Origin: Patescibacteria group bacterium
Lineage (GTDB): Bacteria; Patescibacteriota; Minisyncoccia; UBA6257; 02-FULL-45-10c
DNA: 52,494 nt
Reading direction: 5' to 3'
Assembly: GCA_018896875.1 (NCBI GenBank)
Contig: JAHILT010000017.1
Coordinates: forward strand, 1 to 52,494
Shown here one piece after another: positions 3,660 through 46,112 of the stretch. Each line of letters starts with the position of its first letter. Position 1 is the first letter of the stretch. The position numbers and the translations under genes were made by a program. The notes under the pieces are model-generated. The model was not told where the DNA came from. It saw only the letters and a program-made list of their open reading frames with translations, and made no database searches.

Positions 3660-3723
3660 TTACGTGTTTTATTTAATCTCACGCGTGAGACCAAAAGTTT
3701 AAAAAAATAGCTCGATAATTTTT

Positions 3724-3814: not shown

Positions 3815-3946
3815 ATGAAAAACTTAGACATTACTTATTACAATGGTCTTGATGATGACGATGATGATGAAATGACCGAAGACCCATACGATGAAGATTC
3901 GGGTCCAGACAGCTCATCAACAACCGTCGGAAAAGACCCTGGATAA
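3815..3946 (+). CDS. Unannotated 43-aa highly acidic peptide MKNLDITYYNGLDDDDDDEMTEDPYDEDSGPDSSSTTVGKDPG
   Basis: ATG 4 nt after AAGGAGGTGA, own promoter upstream and terminator downstream. Confidence 0.75.
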   Translation: MKNLDITYYNGLDDDDDDEMTEDPYDEDSGPDSSSTTVGKDPG

Positions 3947-3954
3947 TAAGATAA

Positions 3955-5332: not shown

Positions 5333-5500
5333 AAAAAAATTATAACATAGATTTTGAAAAAAATTATCAAAAAAATAAATAACAAAAATTTAATATATTC
5401 CTAATAGCTCGCATATTGAGCCGTTAAAAATTTATGTATTTTGATGGTTTTCCTTTGGTTTTACGCGTGAGACCAGCGGAGTTTAAATATATTGACTTCG

Positions 5501-11816: not shown

Positions 11817-12392
11817 ATGTCGGGACATAATAAATGGAGTCAAATAAAACATAAAAAAGGAGCTACCGATGCCAAAAAATCTAAGCTTTTCTCTAAGCTT
11901 TTGCATGCTATTTCTATTGCTGCCAAAACCGAACCTAATCCACAATTTAATCCTCGCTTAAGAACAGCTGTTGAGACAGCTAAGGAAAAACTTGTCTCTC
12001 TAGAAAATATAGAAAACGCAATTAATAAAGCCTCTGAACAAAAAAATCTTGAAGAAATGACTATTGAGGCTTATGGACCGGAAGGTGTCGCTATTATTAT
12101 TAAAGCTATTACAGACAACACTAATCGCACTATTTCTGAGATAAAGAAAATTTTAACTGATTATGAAGCAAAATTAGCTAACCCAGGTAGTGTGCTTTGG
12201 GGCTTTTCCGCCGAAGGCCTGCCCGCCTGCCCGGCCAGGGACCAGGGCGGATCCGCCTCTGGCGGAGATACAACTTGGAAATCTAAATTCCCACAAAATA
12301 TTTCTTCTGAATCAAAAAATAAAATAGAACAATTAATTACAGAATTAGAAAATTACGAAGATACTCAAAATGTTTTCACAAATATTAATTAA
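11817..12392 (+). CDS. yebC: YebC/PmpR family protein (short form) with a 20-aa repeat-derived insertion
   Basis: MSGHNKWSQIKHKKG, NPRLR, EAYGPEGVA, TDNTNRT. Confidence 0.92.
   Translation: MSGHNKWSQIKHKKGATDAKKSKLFSKLLHAISIAAKTEPNPQFNPRLRTAVETAKEKLVSLENIENAINKASEQKNLEEMTIEAYGPEGVAIIIKAITDNTNRTISEIKKILTDYEAKLANPGSVLWGFSAEGLPACPARDQGGSASGGDTTWKSKFPQNISSESKNKIEQLITELENYEDTQNVFTNIN
12207..12266 (+). repeat. GC-rich palindromic element inserted in frame in yebC
   Basis: TCCGCC...GGCGGA ends, 60 bp, very high GC in an AT-rich gene; shares core with 15895-15930. Confidence 0.85.
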
Positions 12393-41389: not shown

Positions 41390-44300
41390 TCATTCTTCTA
41401 CTATCACTTCAGCTTCAAATGATTTAGAAACACTTGAATTATTACAAGTAAGAATATATGTAGTGGTTTGATCTGGAGAAACTCGTATTGAACCATAAGT
41501 ATTAATTTCTTCGTTAACGCCTGGTTCCAAAGAACACCATTCCGCATATTCACATTTCCAGGAAAGTTCAGAATCAGTAATAAAGGCAGATTGTTTATCA
41601 ATAGTTGGAGGCAAGGCAGTGAAAGAACAAGTAGGAGCTTCAACAACTCTTAATGCAATTGATTTTATTGTTGTTCCTAATTCTCCAACACAAGTTAAAG
41701 TATAATTGAAATTCTTTTTTACAGAGCTAACAAATCTTTGAATTCCTTCAAGCTCTTTTTCTCCACCCCAAGATCCCGATGCTTCGCAAGAATCAGCGTT
41801 AGCAACGCTCCATATTAGATTGTATTCAGCTGGCGCTCCTATAATTTGTTCCGAGGCATCATTTCCATCTATTTTAAAGTTAATAATTGGGGCTGTATCT
41901 GGAGGAGGAGGTCCTTCAACAGTTATATCTACATAAGATATATTGGAAAATTTCTTATCGTTTTGCAGTAATCTAAAAATACCGTATCTATAAGTTCCAG
42001 GTTCATTATTAAATGTAAAGTTTCCCAAACGAACATTGCATTCTTTGGCGTTTTCTGGACTTTTAACCATTCCTTTAAATTCTGCGGGATTTCTTGCTAA
42101 GTCTATATTGTATAAACAATAACCACTATTAGTTAAAAGAGAACTCCATCCTTCTGTAGCATCTCTACTAGTTTTTCCGTCATTGTTTATGTCTTGATTG
42201 ACTTTCACATAAAGATCAGTTGGTTCGCCGCGAGCCACAGTAATATCTTGAGAATAAGTTATTTGGTCCGTGCTAATAGAAGCCTCAGCGACAGGCATTT
42301 GCTCTTCTGATAATTTATCTTTTCTTCCTAATAAATTATCAATCAATCCGCTTCTACTATCTCCTCCTGTTCCTCCTACAACATTTACAACAACCGTATC
42401 AGATCCTGATCCAGGGCAGTAAAGAGAATAAGTATACTTGCCATTTTTCTTTAAAGTTATATCTTCGGAACCAGCTTTAAGTTTAACCTTAAGCCAAGAG
42501 CCAGTGGCTAAACAATATTTGTCTAAATTCCAAGAGAGCGTAAATTTAGACTGGCTTTCAATCGTAATAGGCCCATCAACGCCATTGACTTTAAGATCTA
42601 TAGTGTCTTTTTCTGGTAAAACCTCTTGTTCTCTAAATGGTTTAGGAGGTGGCGGAGGGGGCTCAGGTTCTTCCCATTCAGGAAGTTCAATACTGGCGCT
42701 TTTAATTTCTATTCTTACAGTTTTTGTTTTAGACGCGCCATTAAAACCTATCGCTGTTAAGGTATATGTAGTGCTTATGGCAGGGCGAACATTTGCGGTT
42801 CCGCTTAGCGAATTGCCGACATTATGATCAATAGAAACTTTTTCAGCATCAGCAACTTCCCACGTTAAAGTAGCGAATTCGTCTTTTTCAATTTCTGTTT
42901 TGTCTGTGCTGAATTCAACTTCTGGAAGTGGCATATCTTCAACATTTCCTACTAAAATGTTGAGTTTTCGCATAGCTTCTTCAGGCCCACCTTCGCTTTC
43001 TGGAAATTCACTATTATTCACTCTAAGCACGAAAGTGTATGTTCCTGTCCTAAGGGAGCTAGTGTTTATTTTTAACGGATTGTCTCTGTTGTTTTTAATA
43101 TCCGAAGAGCTTAATAACTTTTCATCTCCAATTCCTTTTTTGAGATAAACAGATATATCAAGGGGGCCGCTATATTTATTATATTCAACTTTAACGTCCC
43201 ATTCTAATTCAAAAGTTTTTCCAATAGGTATCTGCCATTCAGTAGTTGAATCTACAGGCATAGGTATTAAATCTTTATTGTCTTCTACAATTTCAAAATC
43301 ATTTATTTCAGGATTTGGAAGAACGTCTCTAAGATCTTTCACTGAAATTTTAATTGGTTCGAAAGTTGCTTCTTCAAGCCCGTTGTCGCTTGCAGGAAAT
43401 TCATCATTATTTACTTTAATTGTGAAAGTGTATATTCCTGTTTCAAAAGAACTAGTATCTATTAGTAATGGTTCGTTTTCATTATTTTTGATTTTTGAAG
43501 AAGCTACAAACTTGCTTTTTTCAATTCCTGTTTGGCTAAAAATATCTATTGAAAGAGGACTGCCGTTTTCGTCTCCATATTCGTCATTTTCAACATCCCA
43601 TTTTAATTCAAAAGTTTTTCCCTTAATTATTTGCCATTTAGACTTTGAATTAGGTATCGCGCTGATATCTGTCAAGTCTTCATTTCCTTCTGTAATAATT
43701 TTAAAGTCTTTTATTTCTGGATCTGGAGGAATGTCCCCGACGAATACTTTTATTTCTTTTTCTTCTTTACCGCGTTCAGGAGAATTTTTTCCATCTAGTA
43801 CTCCATAGCATGAAAACGTGTATATATATATTCCTCTCTTGACATTTTCAAAAGGAAAATCGTCTGATTTCGGAGTAATTTCTCCTGTTCTTACGTTAAT
43901 TCCAACTTCGCCAACTTCTATTTTTCTTTCAAACGAATTAGATGGGCTGGTTGCATTGTCTCCTGATAAATCACAACGCGCGGATGGATTAGAAAGACCC
44001 CACTTTAATATAAGTTTATTATAGGCGTCAATTTCAAATCTATCATTTTCAGAATTTAGCGTTGCATTTGTTGATAAAGACATTGAATTTTCATCAGATC
44101 TGAGTCCACACCCGTCAAATTTCAATGGCGGATAATTGCTTGGATAAAAAGTGCCGTAGACATCACGTGGTGGTGTGTGATAATTAATGTAACACCAAAT
44201 TGTTATAGAATTAGCGCTTTTTGATGTATTTATTTCTCCAGGCAAACAGGATCTTATAATTTCCGTTTTTATTTTGTCGTAAATTCGGGGTATTGAAAAA

Positions 44301-44767
44301 TAGACTGGAAGATTGACAGCTTTTATTTGATGGTGTGTGGTACCAAAACTTTCATAATCATTTTTCTTGCATTCAGCAGGACTATGCGCTGCGCCAGGAT
44401 TGCGCAATAAAGATGCCAAATAGTTTCCATCAGCTATTGTGCTCCAGTTGGGTATTGTGCTATCAATTGCCTTCCATAATTCTTCAAGATTAGAAGCAAG
44501 AGCATAGGGTATTTTTATAGTGTCTAAACTTAGTCTTATTTGTGTAATTTTGTTCCAGTTAGGAAAATCCGATTGATTAAAAATACAATACTTATTTTCT
44601 TCTAAATCATTAAGTTGCGCGAAACTTCCGTTTTCTTTAAAGGCAGCACAATGTATTATATTACCATCTTCATCTATTGCATTTTCGTAGCCTGCAAGGC
44701 TATCTTGGGCAAATAAAAAAACAAATCCAAAAGTTATCAATAATAAAAATTTAATTTTGTTATTCAT
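41390..44767 (-). CDS. Large exported surface protein with tandem Ig-like repeats
   Basis: Signal peptide; two ~130-aa near-duplicate repeats (PEI.DF.I ... WQI..GKTFEL.WDV ... TG.YTF..VNN.EFP.S); TL.W...C...TYTL.C modules; poly-Pro linkers. Confidence 0.8.
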   Translation of the reverse strand: MNNKIKFLLLITFGFVFLFAQDSLAGYENAIDEDGNIIHCAAFKENGSFAQLNDLEENKYCIFNQSDFPNWNKITQIRLSLDTIKIPYALASNLEELWKAIDSTIPNWSTIADGNYLASLLRNPGAAHSPAECKKNDYESFGTTHHQIKAVNLPVYFSIPRIYDKIKTEIIRSCLPGEINTSKSANSITIWCYINYHTPPRDVYGTFYPSNYPPLKFDGCGLRSDENSMSLSTNATLNSENDRFEIDAYNKLILKWGLSNPSARCDLSGDNATSPSNSFERKIEVGEVGINVRTGEITPKSDDFPFENVKRGIYIYTFSCYGVLDGKNSPERGKEEKEIKVFVGDIPPDPEIKDFKIITEGNEDLTDISAIPNSKSKWQIIKGKTFELKWDVENDEYGDENGSPLSIDIFSQTGIEKSKFVASSKIKNNENEPLLIDTSSFETGIYTFTIKVNNDEFPASDNGLEEATFEPIKISVKDLRDVLPNPEINDFEIVEDNKDLIPMPVDSTTEWQIPIGKTFELEWDVKVEYNKYSGPLDISVYLKKGIGDEKLLSSSDIKNNRDNPLKINTSSLRTGTYTFVLRVNNSEFPESEGGPEEAMRKLNILVGNVEDMPLPEVEFSTDKTEIEKDEFATLTWEVADAEKVSIDHNVGNSLSGTANVRPAISTTYTLTAIGFNGASKTKTVRIEIKSASIELPEWEEPEPPPPPPKPFREQEVLPEKDTIDLKVNGVDGPITIESQSKFTLSWNLDKYCLATGSWLKVKLKAGSEDITLKKNGKYTYSLYCPGSGSDTVVVNVVGGTGGDSRSGLIDNLLGRKDKLSEEQMPVAEASISTDQITYSQDITVARGEPTDLYVKVNQDINNDGKTSRDATEGWSSLLTNSGYCLYNIDLARNPAEFKGMVKSPENAKECNVRLGNFTFNNEPGTYRYGIFRLLQNDKKFSNISYVDITVEGPPPPDTAPIINFKIDGNDASEQIIGAPAEYNLIWSVANADSCEASGSWGGEKELEGIQRFVSSVKKNFNYTLTCVGELGTTIKSIALRVVEAPTCSFTALPPTIDKQSAFITDSELSWKCEYAEWCSLEPGVNEEINTYGSIRVSPDQTTTYILTCNNSSVSKSFEAEVIVEE

Positions 44768-45013
44768 TTTTTAAAAATTTAATTCGGAAACAAATTATTT
44801 TTTTATCTTTAAAGTAATATCCGAATTTTTATTATTTAATGTATTTATAGATTATCATTTTTTTGAATGTGATACCAACCATAAAAATATAAATTTCTAA
44901 AGAAGGCTTATCTTTTCTCTTTTTCTCTTTTCCTCAATTCTTCTTTCTCTATTTTTGTTTTTCTATTCTTATTTTTGCATTTATATCTATATATATAAAT
45001 TTAGATAATCATT

Positions 45014-45743
45014 TCCATAGTCTCACGCGTGAGACTATGGACTTTTTTAAAAATCACCCATTTTTTAATTATTTTACTTTTTAAGTAATTATATTCTTTA
45101 GTCTCACGCGTGAGACTAAAGAACCTTTAAGGTTTTTAACTGTCTACTTTATTGTTTTTTTAATTACCTTTTTATCAAGTTTTCGATTATCCAGTTTTTA
45201 CTTTTTACTAAGTAGCTATCCTATCCCCATGGTCTCACGTGTGAGACCATGGGGATAATGTAAATTCTAAAGCTATAAAATATTTAAAATATTTTCTGCG
45301 CCTTTATATTTTCGCTGATAAACTCTTATTTTTTTATGTTTTGTTAGAGTTGAATATTTTCTTTTTCTGTTGGGATTTTTACTATATCTTCTACCTTCTA
45401 AGATATCTTTTGTCTTACTTATTGTATTCGCCGAAACATTTAGAATTTTTTTAATATCACAATATTTTTTATTTTGATTTAATAGTTTCATTGTCGCTAT
45501 TCTTCGAAAAATAATACATTTTTCATAATCAGTTAAAAACTTATCAAAGAACTTATTTAAACTATCAATAGAATTAATATTTTTGAATTCTCTTAATAAT
45601 TCATTAATAATTTCTTTCTCAATAAACTTATCTAGTTTTTTATTAATTGAAGACTTCATATTAAATTGATTGCTATTTTTTATATCAATAATAATTATAT
45701 CACAATAAACCTTACTTAGTCTCACGCGTGAGACTAAGTAAGG
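45014..45743. repeat. Four long palindromes sharing core GTCTCACGCGTGAGAC around the TrpR-like gene
   Basis: 45014-45041, 45094-45123, 45222-45257 (one central mismatch), 45710-45743; related copies at 3677-3690 and 5456-5475. Confidence 0.9.
45273..45659 (-). CDS. TrpR-like (YerC/YecD family) helix-turn-helix protein (start moved to MKSSINKK)
   Basis: FLT.YE...I.RR.A...LL....Y..I...LNVS..TISK matches the TrpR/YerC pattern; TGaTATAAT upstream. Confidence 0.75.
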   Translation of the reverse strand: MKSSINKKLDKFIEKEIINELLREFKNINSIDSLNKFFDKFLTDYEKCIIFRRIATMKLLNQNKKYCDIKKILNVSANTISKTKDILEGRRYSKNPNRKRKYSTLTKHKKIRVYQRKYKGAENILNIL

Positions 45744-45901
45744 CGTTCAATGACTAAATTTTTAATAACTGATTATTATTTCATTTCTCTCTGCTTGTCT
45801 GTGTGCGTGGTCGAGAATCTAGTTTTTCTGTTTATCGTTAGAAAATTAGTAATTTATCGTTTAGGGTTTGTTTGGGCCAATTAGAAATTATTAATTAGAA
45901 A

Positions 45902-46101
45902 CCCCGCACCAGAAACTTCGCCGGGCAGTGAGAATTCAATTGCCCCCGCTTAGCGGGGGCAGTAATTGAAATAAATCACTATCTGGAAATAAAAATAGTT
46001 AAGTAATATAAAAAAGTTATATAATTATTGATTGAATTTCTACTGACCCGGTTCGTTTCGGTGCGGGACTAGTCCAGCACTGAGCCCTGCTCTAGTGCTG
46101 G
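45902..46101. repeat. Nested inverted-repeat element plus adjacent hairpin
   Basis: CCCGCACC.GAAAC / GTTTCGGTGCGGG outer arms; CCGGGCAGT..AATTCAAT / ATTGAATT..ACTGACCCGG; inner TGCCCCCGCT t AGCGGGGGCA; CCAGCACT/AGTGCTGG. Confidence 0.7.
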
Positions 46102-46112
46102 GTTGTTTTAGT

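Follow-up and report, generated by a model that had tools for sequence, protein, structure and literature searches.

The window (the whole stretch of 52,494 nucleotides that was analysed) contains a gene for a TrpR/YerC-family regulator surrounded by four palindromes, P1 to P4, which share a core sequence, and a large gene for a 1125-aa protein beyond three of them. Two further copies of the core are located far from this locus. The features are listed below in the order of their coordinates.

3677-3690: remote 14-bp copy of the core, armless, about 35 nt 5' of a TTGACA/TAATAT promoter of a 43-aa acidic ORF
5457-5474: degenerate copy of the core, armless, with 2 mismatches in one half, 5' of a promoter of similar type and a gene for a 233-aa OMP beta-barrel protein
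41390-44767, minus strand: gene for a 1125-aa protein with a signal-peptide-like N-terminus; candidate target downstream of the array
45014-45041: P1, perfect palindrome of 28 bp, arm TCCATA, 247 nt 5' of the start of the 1125-aa gene
45094-45123: P2, perfect palindrome of 30 bp, arm TTCTTTA
45222-45257: P3, palindrome of 36 bp, arm TATCCCCATG, beginning 15 nt past the regulator stop codon
45273-45659, minus strand: TrpR/YerC-family regulator gene; 128 aa, long type, basic C-terminal tail (GR.Y..NPNRKRKYS...KYKGA)
45694-45702, minus strand: extended -10 TGATATAAT, putative regulator promoter judging by its sequence
45710-45743: P4, perfect palindrome of 34 bp, arm CCTTACTTA, putative auto-operator on the regulator -35 region

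The core common to P1, P2, P3 and P4 is GTCTCACGCGTGAGAC. The original prediction had described four palindromes of 28, 30, 36 and 34 bp built around it, with a central C>T change in one copy and with outer arms that all differ and yet are perfectly self-complementary. A direct reading of the sequence bears out each of these points. The changed base is found in P3, where a C is replaced by T at 45240 and the centre of the core becomes CGTG. The arms are each self-complementary, no two are alike, and the symmetry ends abruptly at both edges of each palindrome. The layout is also as described, with P3, P2 and P1 lying between the HTH gene and the 1125-aa gene. The placement of P4 over the -35 region of the HTH gene is plausible given the extended -10 at 45702-45694; on the minus strand, P4 stops 10 nt short of the TATAAT within this element.

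The pieces of Logan contigs that cover the palindromes in four DNA runs from three studies are identical to this stretch, and a single contig runs from 45009 to 45741; no RNA run is listed as carrying the stretch. Hence, the palindromes are not an artefact of one assembly. No population variants at the palindromes were seen in the contigs of the four runs, which drop rare variants. In an Rfam scan, no family reached its gathering score on the palindromes, and the sub-threshold look-alikes of miRNA precursors were dismissed as they merely reflect long hairpins. The Logan contigs of these runs break at palindromes.

The assignment of the gene product as a TrpR/YerC-like HTH protein is well founded. 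It scores 33.3 bits against PF01371, for which the cut-off is 27 (33.5 bits in a six-frame search of the genome, where it was the sole PF01371 gene found), and a profile of six orthologues matches the solved TrpR-like proteins 3g1c (E 1.9e-7), 3kor (4.8e-7) and 3frw (3.1e-6). The homodimer model of the regulator has an ipSAE of 0.44 versus 0.00 for the best of three controls, which may reflect likeness to the solved TrpR dimers; among proteins of solved structure, 20 of 30 pairs and 1 of 23 single chains attain a mark of 0.44. The modelled interface comprises residues 7-58, at least 75% of the contacts agree between runs, and the partner pLDDT is at least 62. As for the 1125-aa protein, all its Pfam matches (Por_Secre_tail, PKD-like) are sub-threshold.

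Copies of the core in the genome and cores of related regulators

With up to two mismatches allowed, the 14-nt core occurs six times in the window, whereas 0.03 copies are expected and none of 100 shuffles reaches six. In the 789,834-bp genome, the core is found at 10 places, all of them intergenic. The copies on contigs C13 and C24 represent one locus at overlapping contig ends, so the genome contains about nine sites. Four of these fall within 730 bp around the regulator gene, and the other five or so adjoin genes of surface or secreted proteins; OMP beta-barrel, pilin-like Fib_succ_major and secreted-protein genes as well as tsaD are found beside core sites. Seven sites define a 20-bp consensus, T[A/G]GTCTCACGCGTGAGAC[C/T]A, with a 7-6-7 layout. 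The arms extend beyond it by 4 nt in P1, 5 nt in P2, 8 nt in P3 and 7 nt in P4, and by 3, 10 and 0 nt at the sites on C13, C66 (a 40-bp palindrome) and C75, respectively. As a complementary pair arises by chance with a frequency of about 0.26-0.28 per position, the arm runs at the core copies are not fortuitous. A lack of extended arms at other genomic copies, which the original prediction had named as speaking against it, is seen at three of the five other loci (C75, 3677 and 5457), but not at those on C13 and C66.

The regulator and its sites are reminiscent of HisR, the TrpR-family histidine repressor (B. subtilis YerC and its orthologues), with which it shares its Pfam family. Of the solved structures, the closest is 3g1c, named E. 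eligens HisR in Ashniev et al. 2022 (PMC9413887). In the passages of that paper on operators, those of HisR and TrpR are palindromic with a 20-bp 7-6-7 layout, the HisR consensus is lineage-specific, and HisR is usually present in one copy per genome; all of this resembles the system described here. However, neither the HisR consensus cacTTTAnnnnnnTAAAgtg nor the proteobacterial TGTA type given in these passages is matched. The half-site here is TAGTCTC, that is, GTCTC where HisR has TTTA. The regulator is 128 aa long and carries a basic C-terminal tail, whereas HisR and TrpR have fewer than 100 aa. HisR sites lie on his genes, whereas the sites here bracket the regulator gene and adjoin surface-protein genes, and no his genes were found among the neighbours of the sites in this genome. 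The variable perfect arms of the sites are a further difference from HisR. Similar to E. coli TrpR, the regulator would be a dimeric HTH repressor (the dimer being predicted here) with a palindromic operator over its own promoter, but E. coli trpR is not known to have a second operator past its stop codon, where the predicted site P3 lies in this genome. To our knowledge, E. coli TrpR operators are not set within perfect palindromes of 28-44 bp.

Across the order, 81 PF01371 loci were found, of which 61 encode long-type proteins (at least 123 aa) and 20 encode short-type, HisR-like ones. Perfect palindromes with the same core are present both upstream and downstream of 38 of the 61 long-type genes, whereas none of the 20 short-type genes is bracketed in this way; a HisR-type site adjoins a short-type gene in relative L186. 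Analogous arrays with clade-specific cores at homologues in other CPR, which had been suggested as a check, thus exist. Orthologues at about 50% identity have their own flanking cores (such as GGTCTCC-CTAA-GGAGACC, TGGTCTCTTATAAGAGACCA and GGTTCTAATATTAGAACC), and several orthologue cores have a GGTYTC-N6-GARACC frame in common. The half-site GGTCTC resembles a restriction-type word, but half-sites in other lineages are unrelated and this reading was discarded. The core of this genome, with up to one mismatch, was found in none of 60 relatives. An exact 16-mer scan of metagenomes revealed no close strain among the 80 loci listed of 120 stretches, and the listed matches are single, mostly on GC-rich unrelated contigs, and at chance level.

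The bracketing of regulator genes could also mean that the palindromes are copies of a small element, either mobile (REP/MITE-like) or used in recombination (recombinase sites), with the regulator gene as a passenger or as a cassette bounded by these copies. The 38 long-type loci are bracketed regardless of the neighbouring genes, and the central 6 bp are invariant within a genome. P1 and the C75 site have their left arm in common. The 40-bp palindrome on C66, the flank of which also appears on a loose contig end (X4) at 45094, contains all 30 bp of P2 as its inner part. However, the arm that P2 has in common with the C66 site exceeds the consensus by only 5 nt, and with all pairs of sites considered, we estimate a probability of about 0.07 for such a match to arise by chance. 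Dispersed intergenic palindromes that are conserved in part are also known as REP/BIME elements, which go with RAYT transposases, but what is conserved here is the centre and not the entire hairpin. The sites accompany an HTH regulator gene, their copy number is just about nine, no Y1 (RAYT) transposase (PF01797) was found in the genome, and the flanks are without target duplications. Furthermore, the cores co-vary with the regulator lineage, and the ACGCGT centre is combined with different half-sites in five lineages (G000, L033, L034, L035 and L194), which fits protein read-out better than copying. We give the mobile element very little credence.

Perfect arms of variable length

In the 97 sites of the 38 bracketed loci, the arm beyond the core shared within a locus is 3.21 nt long on average and measures at least 3 nt in 54 sites. 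In a swap control, the mean is 0.96 nt and at least 3 nt is reached in 17 of 178 cases. Past the first mismatch, pairing is at the chance level (mean 0.27, maximum 3, 97 sites), which means that no arm is interrupted, and not one G.U pair or mismatch is present inside the arms (311 positions). Arms of 0-1 nt are found in 36 of the 97 sites. The palindromes have total lengths of 18-44 bp, with 46 of the 97 being no longer than 24 bp. Arm length is independent of the upstream or downstream position and varies inside one locus. The arms of orthologous sites are unlike each other (ACCAG... in L196 versus TATT... in L039; L185 also differs from L210). A reading of the arms as a tandem second half-site for another dimer was rejected, since nothing resembling a half-site recurs at a constant offset in P1-P4.

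Two inferences had been drawn from the arms originally: either cruciform formation is selected for, or flanking DNA is turned into a palindrome by some copying mechanism at the time when a site arises. The former would mean that the regulator, or some supercoiling-dependent control, needs four-way junctions and hence perfect symmetry. The symmetry is indeed perfect and uninterrupted, the centre included, the surroundings are AT-rich, and single-stranded DNA hairpins of the sites have energies of -10.8 to -17.3 kcal/mol versus -3.4 kcal/mol for the core alone. However, the length varies within a locus, many sites span only 18-24 bp, and many, promoter-proximal ones among them, do without arms. 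GC-rich centres and short palindromes extrude poorly as cruciforms, and the centre here is CGCG. In addition, each hairpin of a cruciform would contain one half-site, which is at odds with a dimer operator. Selection for cruciforms is thus quite improbable, and the arms can be explained without it.

The explanation towards which we lean is that P1-P4 are operators of the regulator that they surround and that their arms stem from template switching in replication. A dimer of the 128-aa protein would read the 20-bp palindrome with its halves T[A/G]GTCTC and GAGAC[C/T]A on either side of ACGCGT, and the variable arms would fall outside the recognition sequence. P4 would mediate autorepression from the -35 region of the regulator gene, P3 would be positioned after its stop codon, P2 and P1 would occupy the spacer ahead of the large secreted-protein gene, and the five or so sites elsewhere would make up a small regulon. 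A perfect operator palindrome in nascent DNA could fold back into a hairpin, and intra-strand template switching could then copy one flank onto the other and erase interior mismatches. Template switching at such hairpins would provide every site with its own perfect extension, to be turned over between species. Neutral copying of flanks should result in a flank-like composition, whereas the arms are 55% GC, with 67% pyrimidine in the 5' arm, and the next 10 nt of the flank are 31% GC. Hence, some further bias would be needed, or else selection favouring stems that are stable and rich in GC. Of the two original inferences, copying of flanking DNA is the better supported one, except that it would act continuously and not at the creation of a site. 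The proposed form of this mechanism is template switching in replication, which is known to lengthen inverted repeats and to correct them.

Template switching turns imperfect inverted repeats perfect according to Lavi et al. 2018 (PMC5941160) and Klaric et al. 2020 (PMC7202029), and for yeast promoters, Rozenfeld et al. 2026 (PMC13100816) describe an expansion of such repeats at the sites of transcription factors. The arms described here resemble these quasipalindromes in their perfection, growth and homogenisation and in their location at predicted binding sites of a dimeric factor; perfect uninterrupted arms that differ at orthologous sites are the expected mark of the process. Pairs of the transition type are found at the arm boundary in 42 of 96 sites versus about 29 expected, which fits arms that erode only from outside. 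In contrast to the precedents, an entire family of operators throughout a bacterial order would be affected again and again, and the composition of the arms is skewed towards GC and pyrimidines.

Alternatively, the arms might be selected because the sites double as RNA or single-stranded DNA hairpins (insulators, U-tract-independent terminators or 3'/5' stabilisers), which we regard as possible, if unlikely. Stem-loops derived from the operators would then flank the regulator mRNA, and a site would be a DNA operator and an RNA structure at once. The GC enrichment of the arms is consistent with such a role, as is the presence of RNase III in the genome. The most stable site of a locus reaches about -20 to -28 kcal/mol in 15 of 26 loci, with core energies ranging from -1 to -20 kcal/mol, but the split between core and arm depends on the chosen definition, so the apparent clustering of total stabilities carries little weight. 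Arm length does not correlate with the stability of the core hairpin (26 loci, Spearman rho 0.13, p 0.53). In L193 and L207, which belong to the same genus, a 28-bp palindrome is identical, arms included, within otherwise diverged intergenic DNA; this looks like constraint, with just 5 arm positions involved. The downstream site of a bracketed gene lies 1-100 nt past the stop codon in most loci. Just outside the arm, a pair compatible with G.U in the sense RNA is found in 30 of 96 sites versus 14.8 expected (p ~1e-4), and one compatible in the antisense RNA in only 12 versus 14.3 expected. However, an excess of G.T on the sense strand could equally result from C>T changes in the non-template strand. 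The complete lack of interior G.U pairs and mismatches, with pairing that never resumes, is unlike selected RNA helices. Furthermore, the asymmetric core of L161 has a loop in both orientations, more than a third of the sites have practically no arms, and the long arm is now on the upstream, now on the downstream site.

A comparison with the bidirectional intrinsic terminators of the same genome also bears on this alternative. They are long perfect palindromes as well, and their 5' arm is likewise rich in C and their 3' arm in G, but runs of A are found on their 5' side and runs of T on their 3' side, whereas the 5' operator arms contain more T than A and the 3' flanks of the sites are not enriched in T (at least 5 T in 8 nt at 12 of 96 sites, at least 5 A at 11 of 96). 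In a loose scan for a GC-rich hairpin followed by a U-tract, just P4 on the minus strand and P1 on the plus strand passed. Insertion of the core into older terminator hairpins was considered and rejected, as the remainder without the core would be an AT-rich zero-loop palindrome without A- or T-runs, which does not resemble the terminators of this genome.

Operators with template-switch arms and a role in RNA could also be combined. Self-extending and self-correcting operator hairpins, eroding from the outside in by strand-biased C>T changes, might have been co-opted both as DNA operators and as sense RNA hairpins that insulate or stabilise the regulator transcript. This is rather doubtful. 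If true, it would explain the gene-bracketing layout, the GC-rich arms, the sense G.U excess at the arm ends and the basic C-terminal tail confined to long-type proteins. An operator and a transcript boundary would then be contained in one sequence.

A literature keyword search found no paper on such arm-extended regulator palindromes, and hardly anything is known about gene regulation in Patescibacteria (CPR). The locus presents a concrete and testable candidate regulator-operator pair in an ultra-small groundwater bacterium, with an operator that differs from species to species and a candidate regulon of surface and secreted proteins, which form the interface of episymbiont-like cells towards their hosts. 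The arms may also serve as a natural system for how template switching reshapes bacterial regulatory DNA, which has to date been argued from E. coli reporters, proteobacterial repeat statistics and yeast promoters.

Long hairpins and repair genes genome-wide

Long perfect hairpins are found at a density of 5.4 per 100 kb in this genome versus 0.8 in a 250-kb E. coli sample. Perfect hairpins outnumber those with one mismatch in both, by 43:10 here (at least 14 pairs) and by 10:2 in the E. coli sample (at least 12 pairs), which is a further likeness to template-switch repeats. MutS and the ExoVII large subunit were not found in the 97%-complete genome. An excess of perfect hairpins peculiar to a repair-poor genome was nevertheless rejected, since the density alone differs; with a similar ratio in E. 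coli, the absent repair genes are not needed to explain the perfection. SbcD, which is expected to attack long hairpins, is present. The same genome contains other palindrome cores that also have variable perfect arms, for instance GGAAGTC-N-GACTTCC, with half-lengths of 7 to 21. One member of this latter family, a 43-bp palindrome, abuts the 40-bp palindrome with the regulator core on C66.

Palindrome array and regulator gene

Direct reading of the sequence bore out the original prediction of four palindromes (P1-P4) around a helix-turn-helix regulator gene, with a common core and different, perfectly self-complementary arms outside it. P4 lies upstream of the gene, and the other three lie between the gene and that of a 1125-aa surface protein:

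45014-45041: P1, 28 bp, arm TCCATA
45094-45123: P2, 30 bp, arm TTCTTTA
45222-45257: P3, 36 bp, arm TATCCCCATG
45273-45659, minus strand: regulator ORF, 128 aa from ATG, between P3 and P4
45710-45743: P4, 34 bp, arm CCTTACTTA

All four contain GTCTCACGCGTGAGAC, with a C to T change at 45240 that gives P3 the centre CGTG, and in each the symmetry is perfect up to the end of the arm and at chance level immediately beyond. Four DNA runs, drawn from 3 studies, gave Logan contigs that include the stretch; the pieces covering the palindromes showed no differences, and a single contig covered 45009-45741. Directly 5' of P1 is a pyrimidine-rich low-complexity tract (44880-45010, plus strand), where 44938-45008 was passed over as a repeat in the contig comparison and the contigs break.

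With up to 2 mismatches, the 14-nt core occurs 6 times in the window (0.03 expected), including armless copies at 3677-3690 and 5457-5474, the latter degenerate. Genome-wide (789,834 bp, 31.6% GC) it was found at 10 places, the copies on contigs C13 and C24 being a single locus at overlapping contig ends. The good copies gave a 20-bp consensus, T[A/G]GTCTCACGCGTGAGAC[C/T]A, outside which their arms measure 4, 5, 8, 7, 3, 10 and 0 nt.

By its sequence, the regulator belongs to the TrpR family: it scored 33.3 bits against Pfam Trp_repressor (cut-off 27), and no second such gene was found in the genome. A profile of six orthologues matched the solved TrpR-like proteins 3g1c, 3kor and 3frw with E-values of 2e-7 to 3e-6. 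The homodimer model reached an ipSAE of 0.44 (best control 0.00), a pass possibly due to resemblance to known TrpR dimer structures; among proteins of known structure, 20 of 30 solved as pairs attained this score, as did 1 of 23 solved as single chains. At least 75% of the model contacts agreed between runs, and the pLDDT was at least 62.

Along the minus strand, TATAAT with TG ahead (TGATATAAT, 45702-45694) comes 10 nt past P4, which would place P4 over the -35 region of the putative regulator promoter, where autorepressors classically bind. From the -10 element it is 34 nt to the ATG, and P3 starts 15 nt past the stop codon. Ashniev et al. (PMC9413887) describe 20-bp operators of HisR (YerC) and TrpR with a 7-6-7 structure and a lineage-specific consensus, and P1-P4 have this structure in common with them. 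The palindromes are best described as an array of candidate operators for a TrpR-family autoregulator of CPR type, predicted to work like HisR and TrpR: as a dimer, on a 20-bp palindrome, at its own promoter. The regulator differs from HisR in regulon, consensus and length.

Candidate regulon sites elsewhere in the genome and window
Contig C13: 35 nt past an aminoacyl-tRNA synthetase gene, ahead of tsaD
Contig C66: 120 nt past a pilin-like gene with N_methyl and Fib_succ_major domains
Contig C75: between paralogous secreted proteins of 160 and 165 aa
Window, 3677-3690 and 5457-5474: upstream of two similar TTGACA promoters, those of a 43-aa acidic ORF and an OMP beta-barrel gene

Since none of the candidate regulon sites in this genome adjoins a histidine gene, the regulator is not HisR in function. 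The 43-aa ORF (3816-3947, downstream of the armless core at 3677) is very acidic, with an Asp run, and comes with a promoter and a terminator of its own as well as a strong Shine-Dalgarno sequence.

Related loci and their cores

A search of 60 related genomes, of which five belong to the same genus, did not turn up the core at up to 1 mismatch. Of 31 genomes (this one counted), 16 contained regulator homologues. Analogous arrays with clade-specific cores, which the original prediction had proposed to look for in other CPR, do exist: each orthologue of about 50% identity is flanked by a palindrome array with its own core.

Cores of the orthologue arrays
GGTCTCC-CTAA-GGAGACC: 7-9 copies, arms CCT, CCAT, CTT, CCCCC, CAT, CCCT
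CACTCTCAT-NN-ATGAGAGTG
TGC[G/T]CCTATTAATAGG[C/A]GCA
TGGTCTCTTATAAGAGACCA
GGTTCTAATATTAGAACC
GGTCTCATTAATGAGACC
GGTTTCATTAATGAAACC

A GGTYTC-N6-GARACC frame fits several of these. The centre ACGCGT recurs in five lineages with differing half-sites, which suggests that the putative reading of the palindrome by the protein extends to its centre.

We surveyed 81 PF01371 loci of the order, leaving out the duplicate L201 and the shorter copies of twice-fetched regions. A gene was counted as bracketed if perfect palindromes with the same inner 6-mer, one half being at least 9 nt, lay within 200 nt upstream of its start and within 200 nt past its stop. This held for 38 of the 61 long-type genes (at least 123 aa) and, by the same strict test, for 0 of the 20 short HisR-like genes; starts were placed at the first ATG, and some gene lengths may be overestimated. 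The tail-bearing subfamily is of modest size (81 clusters at 50% identity and E ≤1e-10; 1400 at E ≤1e-3).

A keyword search of the literature, supplements aside, did not find the gene-bracketing layout and the arms in the published TrpR-family description. The observation is confirmed and is not a new class of element. The locus is of interest as a regulator-operator pair open to testing and as a natural example of operators being reshaped by mutation.

Properties and origin of the arms

At 97 sites from 38 loci, perfect extension outside the locus-shared core averaged 3.21 nt and reached at least 3 nt in 54. When the left flank of one site was paired with the right flank of another of the same family, the mean was 0.96 nt, with at least 3 nt in 17 of 178 pairings. 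Pairing past the first mismatch was negligible (mean 0.27 nt, maximum 3). Hence, the arms are genuine: a site has either a perfect arm or none, and the 97 sites included no decayed arm. The arm is 0-1 nt long at 36 sites, and arms are not needed at every site. The longer arm belongs to the upstream site at some loci and to the downstream site at others, and at orthologous sites the arms differ yet stay perfect (locus L196 versus L039; L185 versus L210). A T-rich 3' flank occurs at 12 of 96 sites, so the sites are not canonical terminators.

The pattern is one of a constant, putatively protein-read centre with site-specific, always perfect extensions, species turnover and no positional logic, in which unrelated cores behave alike. 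Because it matches the reported action of template switching at quasipalindromes, the most likely explanation is template-switch growth of the arms with some stability bias. Such switching is reported to turn imperfect repeats into perfect ones (PMC7202029, PMC5941160), to homogenise and expand arms, including those of dimeric transcription factor sites (PMC13100816), and to yield perfect stems from a single event (PMC8794818). Growth would be nucleated on perfectly symmetric operators during replication. Of the two readings offered in the original prediction, the copying of flanking DNA into a palindrome survives in this form. The other, selection for cruciform formation, is not needed and seems unlikely, as it sits badly with a set of sites of which many are short or have no arms. 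As single-stranded DNA, P1-P4 fold with -10.8 to -17.3 kcal/mol (core alone -3.4); arm length was not predicted by core hairpin stability (rho 0.13, p 0.53, n=26).

A purely neutral version of template-switch growth does not fit the GC-rich arms (55% GC versus 31% in the next 10 nt) or one same-genus pair (loci L193 and L207), in which a 28-bp palindrome, arms included, is kept within diverged DNA. The 5' arm composition is C 0.39, T 0.29, G 0.16 and A 0.16.

On the regulator sense strand, the first pair outside the arm was T:G or G:T at 30 of 96 sites (14.8 expected) and A:C or C:A at 12 (14.3 expected). The G:T excess could represent a terminal G.U pair in the sense RNA, or erosion of the arm from the outside only, by C>T changes of the non-template strand with interior mismatches being corrected. 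As interior G.T pairs are completely absent, a DNA-level process is favoured.

Other palindromes in the genome

The genome contains 184 perfect hairpins (stem at least 10, loop up to 8; 15 in a shuffle), 36 of them zero-loop palindromes (3 in the shuffle). Other cores likewise combine a constant centre with variable perfect arms, among them ATCCGCCAGCTGGCGGAT and a second family, GGAAGTC-N-GACTTCC (TAAGGAAGTC-N-GACTTCCTTA), with 8 sites and half-lengths of 2-21. The sites of the latter follow surface-protein genes and flank a 98-aa coiled-coil ORF on both sides.

Second-family sites, by contig
C19: 3509-3539
C19: 3925-3945
C66: 1720-1762
C43: 1909-1944
C45: 3346
C23: 15644
C75: 4365

On C66, a 43-bp palindrome of this family ends exactly at the start of a 40-bp palindrome of the P1-P4 family. 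A further such core is that of two 31-bp palindromes, CCCAGCGAATAT-N-ATATTCGCTGGG (C23:11480-11510 and 11922-11952), which bracket a 101-aa ORF and differ by a compensated outer change (TGACCC...GGGTCA versus TAACCC...GGGTTA). The 26-bp palindrome AGCCCTGCCTGCCGGCAGGCAGGGCT (C13:3075-3100, C13:7392-7417, C26:28641-28666, also C23:17730) recurs together with about 12 nt of conserved flank per side and resembles a small, dispersed repeat.

Perfect and one-mismatch hairpins of at least 14 pairs stand at 43:10. The ratio is the same in a 250-kb sample of E. coli K-12 (10:2, at least 12 pairs), in agreement with Lavi et al. (PMC5941160), so the perfect-hairpin excess is not a mark of a repair-poor genome. 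Long perfect hairpins number 5.4 per 100 kb versus 0.8 in the E. coli sample. No MutS (PF00488), ExoVII large subunit (PF02601) or Y1 transposase (PF01797) turned up in this genome, which is 97% complete; it does have SbcD and RNase III. The overlapping C13 and C24 ends have a few differences in tsaD, which points to strain heterogeneity (contamination estimate 5.1%).

Between P4 and a UPF0102/YraN-like gene lies a GC-rich, hairpin-rich intergenic stretch (45760-46110) that includes TGCCCCCGCT-t-AGCGGGGGCA at 45941-45961 and has no Rfam or tRNA match. Other metagenome contigs carry its segment 46055-46104 with 4-5 differences, and 45919-46054 is skipped by one contig of sequencing run X3. The stretch could represent a mini-insertion or a small RNA that has so far escaped recognition.
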